Shown here: positions 2,471 through 16,132 of the stretch, one piece after another
How the letters are laid out: each line of letters begins with the position of its first letter
Numbering within the stretch: the first letter of the stretch is position 1
IMG/VR virus record: IMGVR_UViG_3300008624_000002
Source of the DNA: an uncultured virus (IMG/VR IMGVR_UViG_3300008624_000002)
Taxonomy: Duplodnaviria > Heunggongvirae > Uroviricota > Caudoviricetes
Direction: 5' to 3' (one strand)
Length of the DNA stretch: 64,000 bases
Notes under the pieces: generated by a model
Database searches by the model: none
Seen by the model: only the letters and a program-made list of their open reading frames with translations
Told to the model about the DNA's origin: nothing
Made by a program: the position numbers and the translations under genes

Positions 2471-4000
2471 TTAACTGAATTTGTTCAATATATTTCTATA
2501 AGTATTTAGTTCTTCTATTTGGGTCGTATCCATACCCTCAATCCATGGTCCGCCTCGTGTATAATGTATTGCACTAGGTCTCCAATTAGTTTCTCTTGTA
2601 TCATGTCCTTCTGTAAACACATAATGTTCTGGTATCTGAGATATCTTATCAGTCCATTCAAATTGATGTAAGTATTTACCACTTGCAGTATTAATTACTT
2701 CTGGTGTAAGTTTTTTGCAGTCTTCGTGTGCGTTATTAAATATCATTAGCGAAGACCATAGTTTCTTTGGATACGAAACATTCTTTTCACCATCGAACTT
2801 AGTATCTGGATATTTGTCAAAGTCATATTGTATACATGCGACTGCATCATCTGGGTCCAGAAAGTAGAACATTGGCCATAAACTCTTAGTGAATAATATA
2901 TCATCGTCTAAGAATATACTAAATCCTTCGTAATTTTCTAAGTATGGAATTAAGAATCTACTGTAAGTAAATTCTGTAGATTGATTTGCATAGTCTCTAG
3001 TGTATTCAGGAATCTTAGATATATCAAGAAAGTTAATTTCTGGTTTCCATTTATTCATCCAATTGTGAACCTCTCCACCACCAGCGCCAAATTTCGTTGA
3101 ATATTCAATACACTTCTTATTTAATTCTGCGAGATTTTTATGTCTAGAATCGTAACCAATGTATACATTTGAGTGTTTACCTTTAGCTAACTTATTGATT
3201 TTCTTATTAAAATCATAAACTTCTGTTCTAAAAGTCATCTGTAATAAGTCGGTTAGTATCTCTATATAACCATGAGTAAATGCAAATGATATATTCTTAT
3301 GATACTTATCTGGTCTTGCAAGTATCTTTTCTTTAGCCCAATCTATAATTTCTTCTATTTCTATTTCCGGAACAGGTATGATATCGTATTCGTCCCATAT
3401 CCACATTTCCATATCCCAATCATCTAGACATTCAAATACAGGAGAACGAACAGAACCTGGGTGAATGTTTAAACTAAACATATCTCCTTGTTTTTTAACT
3501 ATACCTTGAATTGGATTCCATAAACCCTCTTTTCTTATACTGTTTACTAACCAATGTGCTTTAGCGGCATGATAATATACAGAACATATGTTCTCTTCAA
3601 AGTCTGGATTATGTGATTCATCAATATGCGTTCCTATCTTTTCATATTCATCATTTGAATTTTTGAACTCCATACCCGAGTGACCAGGTTTTGGATTCTC
3701 TGGTTTATATGTATAACCATGTGGTAAGAAATACTGATATCCAAAAGCTTGAGACTGCAATGCGTTCCAACCAGAAAACTTACCGTCTCTAATTAACTTA
3801 ACTACATCTCCCCATGTGACTCTTTTAAGTTTTAGATTATATTCTTTGATTATATATTTTAAAGATTTGTATGCCTCTTTGTCTTCGTAAGGTTCATCTA
3901 TGTTGAACCCGCCCATGTGCATATGGAAAGACCTGTCTTTCCAATCTTCTTTTTCTAGAATGGCTATAGTGTCACTTAAAGTTTTAGAACTGATACTCAT
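2471..4000 (-). CDS. GT-A fold glycosyltransferase fused to an N-terminal ParB/Srx-like domain
   Basis: C-half: VYIGYDSR, STEFTYSRFLIPYL, FLDDD (DxD), YPKKLWSSLMIFNN, HYTRGGPW. N-half: L.NSI.KEGL.NPIQG...IHPG..R. Confidence 0.8.
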   Translation of the reverse strand: MSISSKTLSDTIAILEKEDWKDRSFHMHMGGFNIDEPYEDKEAYKSLKYIIKEYNLKLKRVTWGDVVKLIRDGKFSGWNALQSQAFGYQYFLPHGYTYKPENPKPGHSGMEFKNSNDEYEKIGTHIDESHNPDFEENICSVYYHAAKAHWLVNSIRKEGLWNPIQGIVKKQGDMFSLNIHPGSVRSPVFECLDDWDMEMWIWDEYDIIPVPEIEIEEIIDWAKEKILARPDKYHKNISFAFTHGYIEILTDLLQMTFRTEVYDFNKKINKLAKGKHSNVYIGYDSRHKNLAELNKKCIEYSTKFGAGGGEVHNWMNKWKPEINFLDISKIPEYTRDYANQSTEFTYSRFLIPYLENYEGFSIFLDDDILFTKSLWPMFYFLDPDDAVACIQYDFDKYPDTKFDGEKNVSYPKKLWSSLMIFNNAHEDCKKLTPEVINTASGKYLHQFEWTDKISQIPEHYVFTEGHDTRETNWRPSAIHYTRGGPWIEGMDTTQIEELNTYRNILNKFS

Positions 4001-4033: not shown

Positions 4034-5038
4034 CTACGAAGTAATAGGTGATCCAGGCCAAGTACCAGTGCCATCCCAACGGATAACTGGTGTTCGCCCT
4101 TGTCTTGCATATGTAGACGGCGACCTATGGTCGTAAGTTGAAGGTTGTTGTCCTTGTCTTGCATATGTAGTAGGACTTCTGTGGTCGTAAGTTGAAGGTT
4201 GTTGTCCTTGTCTTGCATATGTAGACGGCGACCTGTGGTCATATGTGAATGGCGACTGTTTACTTGTCGGATGTTGATATGTCGAAGGACTTCTATGGTC
4301 GTATGTCAATGGCGACCTATGGTCATAAGAAGATGGCGACCTGTGGTCATATGTAAACGGTGACCTGTGATTATATGTAGTAGGCGACCTATGGTCATAA
4401 GAAGATGGCGACCTATGGTCGTATGTAAATGGACTTTGTTTATTTCTAATATTGGGTTCTTGAGCATTACTAGGTTGCTGAATATCTCTAATATTAGGTT
4501 GTTGAGCAGACCTAATATTTGGTTCTTGTGCATTACTAGGTGATTGATTATTTCTTATATTAGGTTGTTGAGCAGACTTAATCGTAGGTTGCTGAGCATT
4601 ACTAGGTTGTTGAGCAGACCTAATGTTCGGTTCTTGAATGTTTCTAATGTTAGGTTCTTGACCAGCCTTAATCGTAGGTTGTTGATTATTTCTAATGTTT
4701 GGTTCTTGTGCGTTCCTAATGTTTGGTTGTCTAGCATTAGCAATATAAGGCGACTGGAATGTAAACGGTTGCCTATACGGTTGTCGAGCATTAGCAATAT
4801 AAGGACTTTGATAAGTAAACGGTTGTCTATATGGTTGTCTAGCATTAGCAATATAAGGCGACTGATAAGTAAACGGCTGTCTTGCATTATTCGGTTGTCG
4901 AGCAGACCTAATGTTAGGTTCTTGAGCAGACCTAATATTTGGTTGCCTAGCATTAGCAATATACGGCGACTGGAATGTAAACGGCGTCTGCGTTGTATAC
5001 GGTTGTTGTTGGTTTGCAATGACTGGTTGTTGTGGCAT
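4034..5038 (-). CDS. Pro-repeat fibre protein, partner B of pair 1
   Basis: 334 aa, of which 312 are Pro-initiated units (PNIRxAQE, PFTYDHRS, PYIANARQ, etc.); start overlaps the stop of the upstream gene. Confidence 0.8.
   Translation of the reverse strand: MPQQPVIANQQQPYTTQTPFTFQSPYIANARQPNIRSAQEPNIRSARQPNNARQPFTYQSPYIANARQPYRQPFTYQSPYIANARQPYRQPFTFQSPYIANARQPNIRNAQEPNIRNNQQPTIKAGQEPNIRNIQEPNIRSAQQPSNAQQPTIKSAQQPNIRNNQSPSNAQEPNIRSAQQPNIRDIQQPSNAQEPNIRNKQSPFTYDHRSPSSYDHRSPTTYNHRSPFTYDHRSPSSYDHRSPLTYDHRSPSTYQHPTSKQSPFTYDHRSPSTYARQGQQPSTYDHRSPTTYARQGQQPSTYDHRSPSTYARQGRTPVIRWDGTGTWPGSPITS
4091..5026 (-). repeat. Array of 40 even-length Pro-initiated peptide units
   Basis: Parsed by hand from the translation; PYRQ+PFTxQS counted as one 10-residue unit. 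Confidence 0.9.
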
Positions 5039-6663
5039 TAGAATTTCTCGTTAAAGTTATGCACCAACATGCCATTAACAAAATAGGTGTGATTTCCTTC
5101 AACACCACTTAAGTTATACACTGTCATATCTGCGTTTTCGTTAATTTCCATTATCTCTAATCCGCTTTCGTCTTGTCTATCAAACATTATAGCGTCTGTC
5201 ATAGAGAATAATGAATCCCCAATTGTAATTTCGTGTGAATTAATTCCTTCCATCCATGCGTGTTCTCTAACACACTTCTCTACATCAATAGCACCCCACT
5301 CTTGACTGTTTAACATAAATGGATGACTATCTGTTGTTTGCATGATTCTACCATCTGATAAGATGATATCATATACTGAACATGTTCTTGGTTCCATTAT
5401 GATTGAAACATCTTTAGGTTCTATACACTTAGTAGATTCGTTCCATGTCATTATCATTTGTCCCATTACAACATTTTCAATAGGCGATTGACTTCCATCT
5501 GCAAGCCATACTAATGAACCAGCAGCGAAGCAACCACCACCACCACCACCTGGTGTAGTGTATGGATTACGATAACTGTATGTCACTGGAGTTCTTGCGT
5601 TACCAGGTTGTCTTGCGTTATTCGGTTCCCTTGATTGATAAGTGAACGGCACTCTATGGTTGTAAGTAAAGGGTGACCTATGGTTATATGTAAAAGGGGT
5701 CTGATAAGTAAATGGCGTTCTAGCGTTATTTGGTTCCCTTGATTGATAAGTGAATGGTGTTCTCGCAGATGTTCTAGCGTTATTCGGTTGTCTTGACTGA
5801 TAAGTGAACGGTGTACGAGCAGAAGTTCTAGCGTTATTCGGTTCTCTTGACTGATAAGTGAACGGCACCCTATGGTTGTATGTAAAAGGCGACCTATGTT
5901 GATATGACGAAGGACTTCTATGATTGTAAGTAAAAGGCGACCTGTGATTGTAAGTATAAGGCGACCTATGATTGTAAGTAAATGGATGCCTGTATGTAAA
6001 CGGTGACCTATGGTCATAAGTAAATGGTGACCTATGATTGTAAGAAGTTGGATGTCTGTATGTAAACGGCGACCTATGGTCGTATGTAAAAGGCGACCTA
6101 TGTTGATAGGTAAATGGATGCCTGTATGTAGACGGCGACCTATGGTCGTATGTTAAAGGTTGTCTAGCCGGTCTAATATTAGGTTCTTGTTGGTTTCTAA
6201 TATTAGGTTCTTGTTGGTTTCTTATGTTTGGTTCTTGTGCGTCCTTAATCGTAGGTTGTTGATTATTTCTAATATTAGGTTCTTGTTGGTTTCTAATATT
6301 TGGTTCTTGTGCATTAGAAGGATGACGATAGATAACAGGTTGTCTAGCCTGCCTAATATTTGGCTCTTGTGCATTTGCAATATAAGGATATGGCGTTTGT
6401 GCGTTTCTTATATTTGGTTCTTGTTGGTTTGCAATATAAGGATATGGCGTTTGCCTATTCCTAATATTTGGTTCTTGTGCATTTGCAATATAAGGATAAG
6501 GTTGTTGAACACTCTGTTGTCCTGATGCGTTATTCCAACCAGTAGGTGTCTTGATGTAGATTTGGTCTACATCTTTCCATGTAGTAGGACCAGTTTTTAC
6601 CCAAGCGCCTTTAGTGGCATTCCAACCTGTGGGAGTTTTTACCTTCTGAGAGCCTGTCGCCAT
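5038..6663 (-). CDS. Pro-repeat fibre protein, partner A of pair 1: N-terminal KTxTGW hairpin cap, 312-aa repeat array, Gly6 linker, C-terminal Hint domain
   Basis: 541 aa; Hint motifs CFAAGS at the start, TTDSHPF (block B) and VYNL..EGNHTYFVNGMLVHN at the end. Confidence 0.85.
   Translation of the reverse strand: MATGSQKVKTPTGWNATKGAWVKTGPTTWKDVDQIYIKTPTGWNNASGQQSVQQPYPYIANAQEPNIRNRQTPYPYIANQQEPNIRNAQTPYPYIANAQEPNIRQARQPVIYRHPSNAQEPNIRNQQEPNIRNNQQPTIKDAQEPNIRNQQEPNIRNQQEPNIRPARQPLTYDHRSPSTYRHPFTYQHRSPFTYDHRSPFTYRHPTSYNHRSPFTYDHRSPFTYRHPFTYNHRSPYTYNHRSPFTYNHRSPSSYQHRSPFTYNHRVPFTYQSREPNNARTSARTPFTYQSRQPNNARTSARTPFTYQSREPNNARTPFTYQTPFTYNHRSPFTYNHRVPFTYQSREPNNARQPGNARTPVTYSYRNPYTTPGGGGGGCFAAGSLVWLADGSQSPIENVVMGQMIMTWNESTKCIEPKDVSIIMEPRTCSVYDIILSDGRIMQTTDSHPFMLNSQEWGAIDVEKCVREHAWMEGINSHEITIGDSLFSMTDAIMFDRQDESGLEIMEINENADMTVYNLSGVEGNHTYFVNGMLVHNFNEKF
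5056..5532 (-). other. Hint (intein-like) autoprocessing domain, Cys378 to Asn536
   Basis: N-terminal Cys after GGGGGG, TxxH motif, terminal His-Asn followed by FNEKF; no homing-endonuclease insert. Confidence 0.85.
5566..6501 (-). repeat. Array of 40 even-length Pro-initiated peptide units
   Basis: Parsed by hand from the translation; PY+PYIANxQE counted as one 10-residue unit. Confidence 0.9.
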
Positions 6664-6681: not shown

Positions 6682-8757
6682 TTAAGAGTAAAGAATCCAT
6701 AAATCGCCGATTGCGCCGTCACCTCCACCTGGTGCAGAAGTCGATTGATGAATATTTCTTGCAACAGCACCACTGTTAGCGGCATGACTTGTAGTTATTT
6801 GGCCAAACCCAACATTTGATGATGTTCCTACCGCTTGTCCGATACTAACTGCACCGTTTGATATTGCAACACCAGTTCCTGCGGTAATGTGAGCTCTTAC
6901 TTCAGCTGCACTTGGACCAGTGTATGTAATCACACCTGTTGAACTATTATATGCGGCTGAACCATCTCCACCAGCATCTGTGACTGAGATTGCAGCTCTA
7001 GCTCTTGCAGTTGTGTGATAAAGGTTACTTGAACCTTCTGTTAAATCATCTGTATCATGTCCAGTTAATGCTGTGACTGTACCAGCACTTCCAGATACAT
7101 TACCTGTGACATTACCTGTAAGATTACCTTCAAGAGTTCCTGCCTTAAAGTGTTCAGAACCTATTGACCATTCATCTTCTGATTCGTCCCAAATTAAAGT
7201 TTTAGCAGATGAACTACCTCTAGTAATACTGATACCACTATCTTCTGATGGTGTACCTGAGGTGAAATTACTGTTAAGTGCGATTATATTATCTGCAAGG
7301 TTAATTGTTTCTGAGTTTACAGTTGTTGTAGTTCCGGAAACTGTTAAGTCACCAGAAATTGTCATTGAATCACTAATTGCAACTACACCTGTTCCGTTTG
7401 CACTTATTGTTAAGTTGCCGTTTGTAGTTCTTGATTCTATTGCATCTACATCTATTGAGTTTGCAAAAGTGATTGCATTACCATCTGATGAAGTGATATT
7501 AGAACCTGCCTGAACTTCGACAGGACCTTTAAGTTGTATACTACCACTACCAGTTGGGTCTAACTCAACATCACCTGAACCACCTGTTTGCACACTAACA
7601 TTTTGGTTAGAGTCAGCAGAAATAACAATTGTTCCTGAACTATCTTCAACCACTTTTTGTCCATTAACATATAATGAACCTGGCCCGATGTATACATCTT
7701 TCCATGTTTTTGTAGATGAACCTAAATCGTAAGTATCATCTGTAGTTGGTATTAAATGACCTCCTATTGTAGAGGCCGCAGTTGTTGTGACACCTGCAAA
7801 TGAAGGTTTATCAGAAGTTGCAACTGCTTGTCCTATCGCAAGAACACCACTTGAAGCGGTTATACCAGTTCCTGCAATTGCAGTAGATATATCTGCGATT
7901 GCTTCTTTTCTACTTCCATTTGAATCGTTTGCATCTATTATTGCAACACTATCATTCGCAACATCTACAGTAGCTGCCGTTAATTCGTTTAAATCTAATG
8001 CAACTGTTATTGCACCACTTGTTCCACCACCCGAGAGACCATCACCTGCTGTGACTCCTGTTAAGTCTGCTGTTGATGATAATACACCATTGGTTGCAGT
8101 GATATTAGTTCCTGCCATTGCAGTAGCGAGGTCTGCAATTGATTCTTTCTTACTTGTGTTACCTGTTGCATCGATTATTGGAATACTATCGTTTGCAACA
8201 TCTACAGCAGCTGCTGTTAATTCATTCAAGTCAAGTGCGACTGTTATTGCACCACTTGTTCCACCACCAGATAAACCGTCACCTGCTGTGACTCCTGTTA
8301 AATCTGCGGTTGTAGAAAGAACACCATTTGTTGCAGTTATGTTTGTACCTGCCATTGCGGTGGCAAGGTCTGCGATTGATTCTTTTCTTGATCCATTACT
8401 GGCAGAAGCATCTACTATTGCAACACTATCGTTTGCAACATCGACTGCAGCTGCCGTTAATTCATTTAAGTCTAATGCAACTGTGACTGCACCTGAATTT
8501 CCGCCACCTGATAAACCATCGCCTGCGGTGACACCTGTGACATCACCTTGTTGTCCGTTTATTGTTAATGTACCAGCAGCGTCATCATATGATAATGATA
8601 CTCCTGTTCCTGCTGTTAATAGTGTATTGACTTGGTCGTCAATTACCTCTAGTGCCGCTGTTCCAAATGCGGCTGCCGTTAAATCTCCTGAACTATCTAA
8701 AACTGCAGCTGTTCCTACAGATAGCCCATTCTTGATTATAAAATTCTTGTCTGTCAT
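6682..8757 (-). CDS. Tail fibre protein
   Basis: 691 aa, Gly/Ser/Thr/Ala-rich; fibre motifs GDLTVSGTTTTVNS, GNLTGNVTG, TDDLTEGSSNLY; C-terminal SAP...GDLWILYS. Confidence 0.75.
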   Translation of the reverse strand: MTDKNFIIKNGLSVGTAAVLDSSGDLTAAAFGTAALEVIDDQVNTLLTAGTGVSLSYDDAAGTLTINGQQGDVTGVTAGDGLSGGGNSGAVTVALDLNELTAAAVDVANDSVAIVDASASNGSRKESIADLATAMAGTNITATNGVLSTTADLTGVTAGDGLSGGGTSGAITVALDLNELTAAAVDVANDSIPIIDATGNTSKKESIADLATAMAGTNITATNGVLSSTADLTGVTAGDGLSGGGTSGAITVALDLNELTAATVDVANDSVAIIDANDSNGSRKEAIADISTAIAGTGITASSGVLAIGQAVATSDKPSFAGVTTTAASTIGGHLIPTTDDTYDLGSSTKTWKDVYIGPGSLYVNGQKVVEDSSGTIVISADSNQNVSVQTGGSGDVELDPTGSGSIQLKGPVEVQAGSNITSSDGNAITFANSIDVDAIESRTTNGNLTISANGTGVVAISDSMTISGDLTVSGTTTTVNSETINLADNIIALNSNFTSGTPSEDSGISITRGSSSAKTLIWDESEDEWSIGSEHFKAGTLEGNLTGNVTGNVSGSAGTVTALTGHDTDDLTEGSSNLYHTTARARAAISVTDAGGDGSAAYNSSTGVITYTGPSAAEVRAHITAGTGVAISNGAVSIGQAVGTSSNVGFGQITTSHAANSGAVARNIHQSTSAPGGGDGAIGDLWILYS
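7830..8545 (-). repeat. Three tandem 79-80 aa repeats (TGVTAGDGLSGGG.SGA.TVALDLNELTAA.VDVANDS)
   Basis: Equivalent positions at 8531, 8291 and 8054 (spacing 240 and 237 nt). Confidence 0.85.
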
Positions 8758-14005: not shown

Positions 14006-14851
14006 TTAATTACTAAACTGGCCTGTGGGTACTGATTGATGAATTTTATTAACATTTGATGCATCCTTCTTAACGAACACTTCGTCAACTTTCTCTACTG
14101 TATTTGGTGCAGTTTTCATGAAAACACCTTTAGCTTTTGCAACTTGATTTATTTGTCTGGTACCAATATATGGTGATTGAGCATCATAGGGACTTCTGTG
14201 GTTATATGTTGCAGGAGACCTATGTTGATATGTAAAAGGTGACCTATGGTCGTATGTCAATGGCGACCTATGGTCATATGTAAATGGACTTTGTTTAACT
14301 CTAATATTGGGTTCTTGAGCAGCCCTAATATTAGGCTCTTGTTGGTTTCTTATATTTGGTTCTTGAACAACAAGGGGCTGTCTTGCAATATAAGGTGTCT
14401 GATTGTTTCTTATATTAGGTTCTTGTGCATCACTAGGTTGTTGTTTATTAGAAGTAGCTTGTGCGTTTCTTATATTCGGTTGTCGAGCACTATACGTGAA
14501 CGGCGACCTATGGTCATATGTAAAAGGCGACCTATGGTCGTATGTAAACGGCGACCTATGTTGATAGGTAAACGGCACTCTATGTTGATAGGTAAACGGA
14601 CTTCTATGTTGATAGGCATATGGTGACCTATGGTTGTATGTAAACGGTGACCTATGTTGATAGGTAAACGGACTCTGCTTACTTGCAATATAAGGATAGG
14701 GGTTTTGTTGATTCCTTATATTGGGTTCCTGAGAAGCCCTAATATTTGGCTCTTGAGCAGACTTAATCGTAGGTTGCTGAGCGTTCTTAATAACAGGTTG
14801 CTGCTGACTTGCAATGTATGGATAAGGGTATGGTGTTTGATTCTGTGCCAT
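14006..14851 (-). CDS. Pro-repeat fibre protein, partner B of pair 2, with a C-terminal hairpin cap
   Basis: 281 aa; same repeat vocabulary as pair 1; C-terminal KGVFMKT...KVDEVFVK resembles the N-terminal cap of 5038-6663. Confidence 0.8.
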   Translation of the reverse strand: MAQNQTPYPYPYIASQQQPVIKNAQQPTIKSAQEPNIRASQEPNIRNQQNPYPYIASKQSPFTYQHRSPFTYNHRSPYAYQHRSPFTYQHRVPFTYQHRSPFTYDHRSPFTYDHRSPFTYSARQPNIRNAQATSNKQQPSDAQEPNIRNNQTPYIARQPLVVQEPNIRNQQEPNIRAAQEPNIRVKQSPFTYDHRSPLTYDHRSPFTYQHRSPATYNHRSPYDAQSPYIGTRQINQVAKAKGVFMKTAPNTVEKVDEVFVKKDASNVNKIHQSVPTGQFSN

Positions 14852-14863
14852 TATATTCTCCTA

Positions 14864-16132
14864 CTAAGCGCTAGATTCTCCATTTGCTTCTGCCCTTAAA
14901 GACCAATCACAAACATATGTAATTGTAGGTAAAGATGAATGTTCAAAAATCAGATTAAGGGAAAAATCCGCTCTTTCAACCGTTGGTTCACCACCACTTT
15001 CTTCACTTTCAGCAGTAACCTCCCACTCAAAATACTTAGTGTCAACAGTTGCCGGAACTGTTGTAGCTGAAGCAGTTATGGTGCTGGCGTTATCATCACC
15101 ATCGGTATTAAATGTTCCATAAGTTCCGGTTTCTTGTGGAGTTGTTTGTGTAAATTTTACTGTATATGCACCGTCTCCAGCAAGCGTATGGTCAGAAGAA
15201 TTCACATAAAAGGCCCGAGTCAAAGTCGAATGACTAGAAGTTAAAGCACCAGCATGGTCTCTATGAGCAATAGTTTTAACCCAAGCTTCAAGACGACCAG
15301 ACACATATTTACAGGTTACTCTAATTCTTACATAACTATTAGAAGTATCATCCATTACGAAATCAATAGCTTGACCGTAAACATGAGTAATATCATCTAC
15401 CCAATTAAATGGTTTTGTTCCTGATGCATTATATGTTAAAGGTGACCTATGGTCGTATGTAAACGGAGACCTATGGTTGTATGTAAACGGTGACCTATGG
15501 TCATATGTAAACGGTGACCTATGTTGATAGGTAGTAGGTGTTTGCCCTTGTCTAGCATATGTCACAGGTTGTCTTCCTTGACCAATATTAGGTTCTTGAC
15601 CAGACTTAATCGTAGGTTGTCTTCCTTGAGCAATATTGGGTTCCTGAGCACTCTTAATGTTTGGTTGTTGAGCAGACTTAATCGTAGGTTGTTGAGCACC
15701 CCTAATATTTGGCTCTTGAGCAGACTTAATCGTAGGTGCTCGAGCACTAGCAATATAAGGAATTCTATGATTATAAGTTGAAGGGTGTTGATATATTATA
15801 GGATGCCTATAGGTCGAAGGACTTCTGTGGTCGTATGTAGCAGGTTGTCTTGCTTGATATGATGCTCGAGAAATACCAGGACTTCTATGTTGATATGTAG
15901 AAGGCGACCTATGGTCATATGTAAATGGTGACCTATGGTCGTATGTTAAAGGTTGTCTAGCCGGTCTAATATTTGGCTCTTGCTGAGACCTAATGTTAGG
16001 TTCTTGAGCATTCCTAATATTAGGTTCTTGCGTATTACGAATATTAGGTTCTTGAGCAATTACAGGTTGTCTTGCGTTGTAAGGCTGTTGAAAAGTTCCT
16101 AAACCATGTTTTATAAAAATATCGTCTGACAT
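14864..16132 (-). CDS. Pro-repeat fibre protein, partner A of pair 2, with a ~180 aa C-terminal globular domain
   Basis: 422 aa; repeats span aa 17-240, followed by a non-repetitive beta-rich domain. Confidence 0.8.
   Translation of the reverse strand: MSDDIFIKHGLGTFQQPYNARQPVIAQEPNIRNTQEPNIRNAQEPNIRSQQEPNIRPARQPLTYDHRSPFTYDHRSPSTYQHRSPGISRASYQARQPATYDHRSPSTYRHPIIYQHPSTYNHRIPYIASARAPTIKSAQEPNIRGAQQPTIKSAQQPNIKSAQEPNIAQGRQPTIKSGQEPNIGQGRQPVTYARQGQTPTTYQHRSPFTYDHRSPFTYNHRSPFTYDHRSPLTYNASGTKPFNWVDDITHVYGQAIDFVMDDTSNSYVRIRVTCKYVSGRLEAWVKTIAHRDHAGALTSSHSTLTRAFYVNSSDHTLAGDGAYTVKFTQTTPQETGTYGTFNTDGDDNASTITASATTVPATVDTKYFEWEVTAESEESGGEPTVERADFSLNLIFEHSSLPTITYVCDWSLRAEANGESSA

Follow-up and report, generated by a model that had tools for sequence, protein, structure and literature searches.

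A Hint domain of the bacterial intein-like type near the C-terminus of a fibre gene in an uncultured marine T4-like phage

In a 64,000-nucleotide stretch of DNA from an uncultured marine T4-like myophage (IMG/VR record IMGVR_UViG_3300008624_000002; the whole stretch is referred to here as the window), a repeat-rich fibre gene, designated gene A, carries a Hint domain that is followed by only five residues. The domain has the Hint fold and the associated catalytic residues, lacks a nucleophile at the residue that follows it (+1), occurs patchily among related phages, whose Hint-less fibres read through a contiguous junction, and has been exchanged between close relatives. It is probably a self-removing element of the type A bacterial intein-like (BIL) class, dispensable for fibre A and passed among related phages. 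It sits in a Gly-rich tract of fibre A, with five residues left before the C-terminus, and as an optional insert it behaves less like a working component of the fibre than like a passenger tolerated at a permissive, flexible site.

The Hint domain of gene A and its class

Gene A lies on the minus strand, where its open reading frame (ORF) reads ...SYRNPYTTPGGGGGGCFAAGSLV...NGMLVHNFNEKF*, and includes arrays of short repeats of the types PYPYIANAQEPNIRN, QEPNIRN, SPFTYDHR and PFTYQSREPNNAR. The layout is PYTTP-GGGGGG-C378 before the domain and H535-N536-FNEKF after it. An earlier note, made from the letters of the sequence, had described an array ending PYTTP-GGGGGG-C, a complete Hint domain and a HN-FNEKF end with Phe, and not Cys, Ser or Thr, at +1; the ORF translation agrees on each of these points, and the presence of the Hint domain is confirmed. 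The features of the gene are as follows.

5038-6663, minus strand: gene A, 541 amino acids (aa), with an N-terminal KTPTGW region, short-repeat arrays, a Gly6 tract, the Hint domain and a 5-aa tail
5533-5550, minus strand: Gly372-Gly377, six identical GGT codons, forming the N-flank (-1 to -6) of the Hint domain
5056-5532, minus strand: Hint domain (BIL-type, mini-intein-like), Cys378-Asn536, 159 aa, without an endonuclease insert
5530-5532, minus strand: Cys378, first residue of the Hint domain and predicted thioester nucleophile (Cys in 204/206 homologous domains)
5323-5334, minus strand: block B, Thr444-Asp-Ser-His447 (TxxH), with the His invariant and the Thr at least 90% conserved in the alignment
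5056-5061, minus strand: His535-Asn536, end of block G and predicted site of Asn cyclisation, with the Asn536 codon at 5056-5058 (HN ends 196/206 domains)
5041-5055, minus strand: tail FNEKF, the C-flank, with Phe537 at +1 and Lys540 as the penultimate residue
5038-5040, minus strand: stop codon of gene A

Comparisons of sequence and of structure agree on the nature of the domain, and the match to Hint lies well beyond chance. The Pfam family Intein_splicing (PF14890) matches residues 386-536 and covers profile positions 2-155 of 155 (E 1.9e-8, 34.7 bits). With a 175-aa piece as the query, a HMMER search of 1.84 billion representative proteins returned 4133 proteins at E<=1e-3, of which 454 were at E<=1e-10; against PDB sequences, phmmer found the NpuDnaB mini-intein (1.6e-4), the C. 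thermocellum BIL 2lwy (2e-3) and the BIL2 chains of Tetrahymena (~9e-3). An AlphaFold2 model of the domain, generated with 27 aligned relatives, reached a pLDDT of 88.2 and a pTM of 0.85, and gave 60 PDB matches at E<=1e-3 in Foldseek, with all of the matches listed being BIL, intein or Hedgehog Hint domains. The top match was BIL2 of the Tetrahymena BUBL1 locus (E 6e-10, TM 0.81), followed by DnaB mini-inteins and 2lwy (to 9e-9), with Hedgehog ranking lower (1at0, E 8.6e-7). Across the 27 aligned relatives, conservation in the columns of Cys378, Thr444-x-x-His447 and His535-Asn536 is complete or reaches at least 90%. The domain is the sole Hint domain within the window.

The class of the domain was examined by means of a homologue survey of the best 150 proteins, 127 of which yielded 206 full-length Hint domains. 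Of these domains, 204 begin with Cys and 196 end in His-Asn, while at +1 there are 110 with Lys, 19 with Arg and just 19 with Cys, Ser or Thr; the relatives of gene A have F, G, Y, L, I, M, R, S or K there, and the window has Phe. These counts indicate a clade that lacks the +1 nucleophile of inteins yet keeps an intein-type C-terminus. Type A BIL domains are defined in passages of PMC4031507 by precisely such a combination, a His-Asn C-terminus without a +1 nucleophile, with the His-Asn separating type A from type B. With its Hint fold, N-terminal Cys and TxxH, terminal His-Asn, and no Cys, Ser or Thr at +1, the gene A domain fits the type A BIL class, as judged by fold, catalytic residues and +1 residue. 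Ubiquitin-Hint arrays of the BUBL type, with a ubiquitin Pfam match, are also found among the matches (P0039, E 8.6e-25, and P0062).

The likeness to type A BILs (2lwy; Amitai 2003 and Dassa 2004, as summarised in the relevant part of PMC4031507) includes the Hint fold, the Cys, TxxH and His-Asn motifs, the absence of a +1 nucleophile and of an endonuclease and, in the same part of that paper, location within a variable, non-catalytic region of a surface or structural protein. Unlike those BILs, the gene A domain has a phage fibre as its host, a C-flank of five residues that is nearly always Lys-bearing in relatives, a poly-Gly N-flank and a documented empty site. The BIL2 domain of Tetrahymena thermophila BUBL1 (6tmm, 6y75), the best structural match, likewise has a Gly before Cys1, but it lies between two ubiquitin-like domains, the upstream one being conjugated via a Lys of the downstream one (a section of PMC8616854), whereas a pentapeptide is all that lies downstream in gene A.

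Four other classes were considered and set aside. Class 1 mini-inteins (Ssp and Npu DnaB, phage helicase) share with the gene A domain the fold, blocks A, B, F and G, and the existence of intein-free alleles, and inteins in helicase genes of Vibrio phages are 26-28% identical to it; the gene A domain differs from class 1 mini-inteins in carrying Phe at +1, where a canonical class 1 intein requires Cys, Ser or Thr, in being outside the conserved catalytic site of an essential enzyme, and in being without a homing endonuclease. The Hog domain of Hedgehog proteins consists of a Hint module and a sterol or adduct recognition region, without a terminal His-Asn. Like Hog, the gene A domain is a C-terminal Hint that follows a Gly-Cys junction, and the Hog thioester can go to an external nucleophile; unlike Hog, it has a terminal His-Asn with five residues after it, which leaves no room for a sterol-recognition region, and its PF01079 match has an E of 0.0096 and 16 bits, against a cut-off of 29.7. 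Pretoxin Hint domains (PT-HINT, PF07591; E 0.013, 16.2 bits against a cut-off of 27.7) also reside near the C-terminus of a large surface protein and release the part downstream, which in gene A amounts to the five residues FNEKF and no toxin. Finally, the Peptidase S74 chaperone is a self-cleaving C-terminal domain on low-complexity phage fibre proteins (as described in part of PMC7824862), but with an unrelated fold and chemistry (a Ser-Lys dyad), and no S74 family appears among the gene A Pfam matches at E<=0.1.

The same counts bear on whether the domain is processed at all. It could instead stay in place as a distal knob, for instance a binding domain, its catalytic residues being ancestral remnants, a suggestion with which the Pfam score, slightly under threshold, and the deduced nature of cleavage in gene A would be compatible. 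Against it stand the retention of Cys1 (204/206) and of His-Asn (196/206) across deep divergence, and a TxxH His that is invariant in 27 sequences, which fit selection on catalysis; an unprocessed knob is thus considered very unlikely.

Occupied and empty sites in related phages

Related loci were anchored on the glycosyltransferase family 8 (GT8)-like gene downstream, which yielded 208 related stretches in viral contigs and 80 loci, 57 of them with a complete gene A and a complete gene B, the repeat-protein gene that follows A. The Hint domain is present in A in 30 of the 57 complete loci and absent from the other 27. In Hint-less A proteins, the Gly-rich tract is followed directly by a short tail and then the stop, as in the ends ...YFYGGGGGGGGFFPQQLK, ...GGGGGGGGFFPQQLK, ...GGGGGGGGGFYPQDLK, ...VVYFYGGGGGGGGFFPQQLK, ...GGGLPQFLK, ...GFGTGFNPLTK, ...FGGGGEEP and ...GGGNPPNVMEP, with a Gly-poorer tract in loci L131-136; this junction looks as an excised and re-joined product would be expected to look. 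Between L165, which carries the domain, and L138, which does not, the fibre part is 82% identical, and the alignment presents Hint as a clean indel between GGGG and the tail (ISTK and FFPQQLK, respectively). Moreover, tails from the two groups are alike, as seen for FETGFVPLKR and ...GFTPLPK (Hint-plus) beside FNPLTK and LPQFLK (Hint-less), and for IPMQQKGEEP (Hint-plus) beside GGGGEEP (Hint-less). The pattern of occupied and empty sites suggests an insert of the intein kind, flanked on both sides by sequence of the host protein, and the existence of Hint-less orthologues indicates that the fibre can do without the domain. A search for an empty site in a second host family, with residues 600-809 of the Prophage_tail protein P0138, involved seven relatives, the C-termini of which were all unrelated.

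The history of the domain was followed in two trees. The first, a quick IQ-TREE reconstruction for the neighbour protein with 58 rows (30 of them distinct), calls for a minimum of three changes in the Hint state, of which well-supported branches force two; within it, the Hint-plus loci L165-167 fall inside a Hint-less clade (99% support). In the tree of the Hint domains themselves, host families cluster separately, with 100%, 100% and 96% support for three other families. Loci L156 and L162 have near-identical neighbour (GT8-like) genes, yet their Hint domains belong to different supported clades (95% and 97%) and are accompanied by different N-flanks (FPGGFGGG and GDDFQDPG) and tails (LRTGNEAKR and FETGFVPLKR). 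This mismatch indicates that the C-terminal cassette of A has been exchanged between close relatives by recombination.

Variation in the environment was examined with contigs of four marine metagenome runs, each from a different study, aligned to positions 4300-6300 of the window. At ~98% identity, contigs span the stretch from the start of B through the tail and Hint domain to the Gly tract. A joint from 4987 to 5675 in these contigs has 40 extra letters between its sides and a 20-letter flank, and was set aside as repeat- or relative-driven. In the contigs of the four runs the (GGT)6 tract at 5533-5550 is one or two codons (3 or 6 bases) shorter, and thus behaves like a microsatellite at the Hint junction. 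Two ORFs make up gene A in L109 (2353-4456), one of 444 aa and one of 345 aa that includes the Hint domain, while eight sister contigs have gene A intact at 700 aa; the split is either a frameshift or a sequencing error.

Gene B was compared between Hint-plus and Hint-less loci.

4034-5038, minus strand: gene B, 334 aa, of the same repeat family as A, starting MPQQPVIAN

The ATG of gene B overlaps the stop of gene A (TAATG), its conserved C-terminus reads ...TPVIRWDGTGTWPGSPITS, and from N- to C-terminus its repeat types follow the order seen in A. The protein is 334 aa long in the window and 262 aa in contig L001 (741-1529), whose Hint domain and downstream gene are 100% identical to those of the window; the difference is a repeat-number polymorphism between near-identical phages. 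The earlier note had proposed a covalent hairpin, in which the Gly377 thioester would be attacked by the N-terminal amine of B (Pro2 after Met removal) and the two chains would be joined head-to-tail at the fibre tip. A and B are indeed adjacent, with the TAATG overlap, and kept as a pair in 57 of 57 complete loci; the residue after the initial Met of B is in every case a small one (P, A, V or S), and a small second residue permits removal of the Met. In addition, aminolysis of BIL thioesters is established chemistry, as reported in passages of PMC4031507. However, B starts with Met-Pro at 20 of 30 Hint-plus and at 20 of 27 Hint-less loci (11/16 and 6/9 when distinct N-termini are counted), and Hint-plus B proteins also start with MVGQQP, MAQQP, MATGF and MSNIQ; the proline at the N-terminus thus belongs to B irrespective of the domain. 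The 27 Hint-less loci have the A-B pair unchanged, so that pairing does not need the domain, and its own His-Asn and tail would provide a nearer amine in cis. Furthermore, the same layout is found on other tail protein families without a B-like partner in the protein itself. The hairpin proposal is not borne out by these comparisons and is regarded as extremely unlikely.

Self-removal, lysine tails and assembly

Processing of the gene A domain in the manner of type A BILs would begin with an N-to-S acyl shift between Gly377 and Cys378, which generates a glycyl thioester, and cyclisation of Asn536 would subsequently free the pentapeptide FNEKF. The thioester could then be resolved in two ways: attack by the alpha-amine of Phe537 or the epsilon-amine of Lys540 would produce fibre-Gly6-FNEKF, while attack by water would leave a fibre ending in Gly6. 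With either resolution, the Hint domain would leave the mature fibre. Both the processing and the re-ligation of the tail are proposed on the basis of known family chemistry: the ligation route of type A BILs, in the account given in passages of PMC4031507, runs through a thioester, Asn cyclisation and attack of the freed amine on the thioester, while BILs 'produce predominantly cleaved products', in the words of a passage of PMC7664689. The earlier note had started from the premise that Hint domains form a thioester at their first Cys and that canonical splicing is not expected without a +1 nucleophile; both statements stand, but the premise was incomplete, since type A BILs with His-Asn can still ligate their flanks, according to parts of the same two papers (PMC4031507, PMC7664689).

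A different outcome for the thioester is suggested by BIL2, which in section 2.4 of PMC8616854 forms an isopeptide bond between a Lys epsilon-amine and a C-terminus, and conjugates its ubiquitin-like N-flank to substrates without ATP. In gene A, an equivalent reaction would transfer the glycyl thioester to the epsilon-amine of the fibre's own Lys540, creating a branched cap or lariat, or to that of another virion or host protein, the isopeptide bond being ATP-independent. This possibility was considered in the light of a terminal class of 30 proteins, those with a single Hint domain at the extreme C-terminus. Their hosts are unrelated, and include repeat fibres, central-fibre J-like proteins (phrog_31, phrog_5616), Prophage_tail proteins (PF06605) and an unnamed family. 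Gly is at -1 in 23 of the 30, at least three of the eight preceding residues are Gly in 21, and the tails have a mean length of 8 aa (1-29 residues in relatives), examples being FNEKF, FHEKL, GGNNQKR, FNDKR, ADDK, VAQEIKP and K. The tail includes a Lys, usually as the last or second-last residue, in 29 of the 30 proteins, as compared with 8.0 expected from composition, and the pattern holds in the wider A family too; Lys is also the +1 residue in 110 of the 206 homologous domains. The C-terminus of ubiquitin is a Gly, and the N-flank of the gene A domain ends in Gly in a similar manner. BIL2, as mentioned, is the best structural match in Foldseek. In contrast, an ...LK or ...TK end is also found in some Hint-less orthologues, and the Lys may therefore belong to the fibre tail; the domain is dispensable at 27 of 57 loci, contrary to what an essential cross-link would entail; and the tail is modelled at low confidence (last block pLDDT 42), with no geometry in favour of Lys attack. 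The tail lysine may consequently be either the ligating nucleophile or simply part of the fibre tail, and BIL2-like conjugation appears unlikely. The Gly tract-Cys...His-Asn-Lys tail arrangement occurs C-terminally in at least four unrelated families of tail or fibre proteins, and equally doubtful is the broader suggestion that it makes up a self-contained, ATP-independent conjugation cassette used by phages. If it were true, an isopeptide link, to the fibre's own tail Lys or to another virion or host protein, would have a part in tail assembly or attachment.

Homologous Hint domains were also encountered in other settings. In L062, L063, L068, L071, L083, L031, L042-L044 and L065 they lie near the N-terminus of large central-fibre J-like tail proteins, with similar Gly-rich flanks on both sides (MTKRIIGAGGGGG-C...VHN-AGLGSKIIGAGGGGGG) and no +1 nucleophile. 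Proteins P0002, P0006, P0008-P0010, P0027 and others carry two to seven tandem Hint domains, 0-5 residues apart (VHN-K-G-G-C), and some of these tandem-Hint proteins have a signal-peptide-like start and no other domain.

A third possible role is that of a self-removing assembly aid, in which the Hint domain would register the repetitive chains during folding and then cut itself off, being needed in the lineages that carry it. C-terminal self-cleaving chaperones are known on low-complexity tail fibres and spikes (as described in part of PMC7824862), the domain is kept in 23 of 23 rows of the window's clade, and the layout recurs on other tail proteins. This role is nonetheless difficult to reconcile with the 27 of 57 loci that are Hint-less, among them an orthologue 82% identical in its fibre part, or with a second pair of proteins of the same repeats in the window (14006-16132), which has no Hint domain; in addition, a strict His-Asn and the retention of a tail would be superfluous for an N-terminal cut alone. 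A needed assembly aid is therefore judged improbable. The earlier note had listed a self-removing folding aid beside the hairpin and the attachment of a small molecule to the fibre tip; of these three options, self-removal fits best, while a required folding aid is at odds with the Hint-less loci.

The reading of the domain as a self-removing and dispensable type A BIL element is the one favoured here, and a number of points weigh against it. The excision of the gene A domain is argued from sequence and from family chemistry, and the re-ligation of FNEKF is uncertain, as BILs mostly cleave. The PF14890 score of 34.7 bits lies ~1 bit under the curated cut-off of 35.8, and the GC content of the domain (36.3%, against a window average of 36.4%) gives no mark of recent foreign origin. 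The window's own clade keeps the domain in 23 of 23 rows of the neighbour tree, and a precise skip of the Hint domain was seen in no contig of the four marine runs, a weak point since contigs drop rare variants. Lastly, the recurrence of the Gly tract, Hint domain and Lys tail on unrelated tail proteins, with Lys in 29 of 30, could reflect a selected function and not a passenger.

Gene neighbourhood and significance

The source of the window is an uncultured marine T4-like myophage, with baseplate genes gp5, gp6, gp25, gp48 and gp53-like genes within the window. By gp6, the nearest named phages are Pelagibacter phage Mosig and Methylophilales phage Melnitz, at 39% identity. Two neighbours of the A-B pair recur with it.

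2471-4000, minus strand: downstream neighbour, 509 aa, weakly GT8-like (PF01501 E 3.1e-4, below the cut-off; phrog_28018 E 2.4e-42)
6682-8757, minus strand: upstream neighbour, a conserved 691-aa fibre-like protein ending ...GDLWILYS

The order long fibre (...GDLWILYS), A, B, GT8-like protein and 183-aa protein is kept in many viral contigs. The end of the upstream 691-aa protein is strongly conserved (...STSAPxxGDGAVGDLWILYS), as is a double KTPTGW motif at the start of A (6540-6663), and these two conserved ends may be mutual docking sites of the proteins. The GT8-like gene (2471-4000) follows B at every related locus examined, and Tyr, Ser and Thr abound in the repeats of both A and B. Since glycogenin, which glucosylates tyrosine, is a GT8 member, the fibre may be glycosylated. 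The second pair of EPNIRN/SPFTYDHR repeat proteins, also on the minus strand, comprises a 422-aa protein (14864-16132) with a globular C-terminus of ~170 aa and a 281-aa protein (14006-14851), neither of which has a Gly tract or a Hint domain; the window phage thus has four proteins of this repeat family in total. The nearest record, G001, breaks off within gene A and was informative for this second pair alone.

Relatives of gene A were found in metagenomic sequence. Its N-terminal 70 aa are common to 58 protein clusters, all of them metagenomic and none informatively named, among which phmmer gave a full Hint match in 46, a partial match in 6 and other C-terminal domains in 6. A tblastn search of named phage genomes detected no cultured relative of gene A, with only weak matches in 12 Vibrio phage records: 11 of these match the Hint domain at 26-28% identity (9 annotated as DNA helicase or NTP hydrolase, 2 as hypothetical), and the remaining one matches the repeat region.

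Phage inteins are known from replication and packaging enzymes, and no description of a BIL or intein-like domain in phage tail or fibre proteins was found in open-access papers and preprints. Gene A represents a well-documented case in which such a domain resides in a structural fibre gene and natural samples include the site both occupied and empty. It could serve as a clean system in which to ask if BILs are parasites or tools, and if in vivo they splice or only cleave. For annotation, the ORFs of fibre genes in these phages probably overstate the length of the mature protein by ~160 residues. The occurrence of C-terminal Hint domains, with poly-Gly and a Lys-bearing micro-tail, on several unrelated phage tail proteins could, in turn, point to covalent chemistry in tail assembly.

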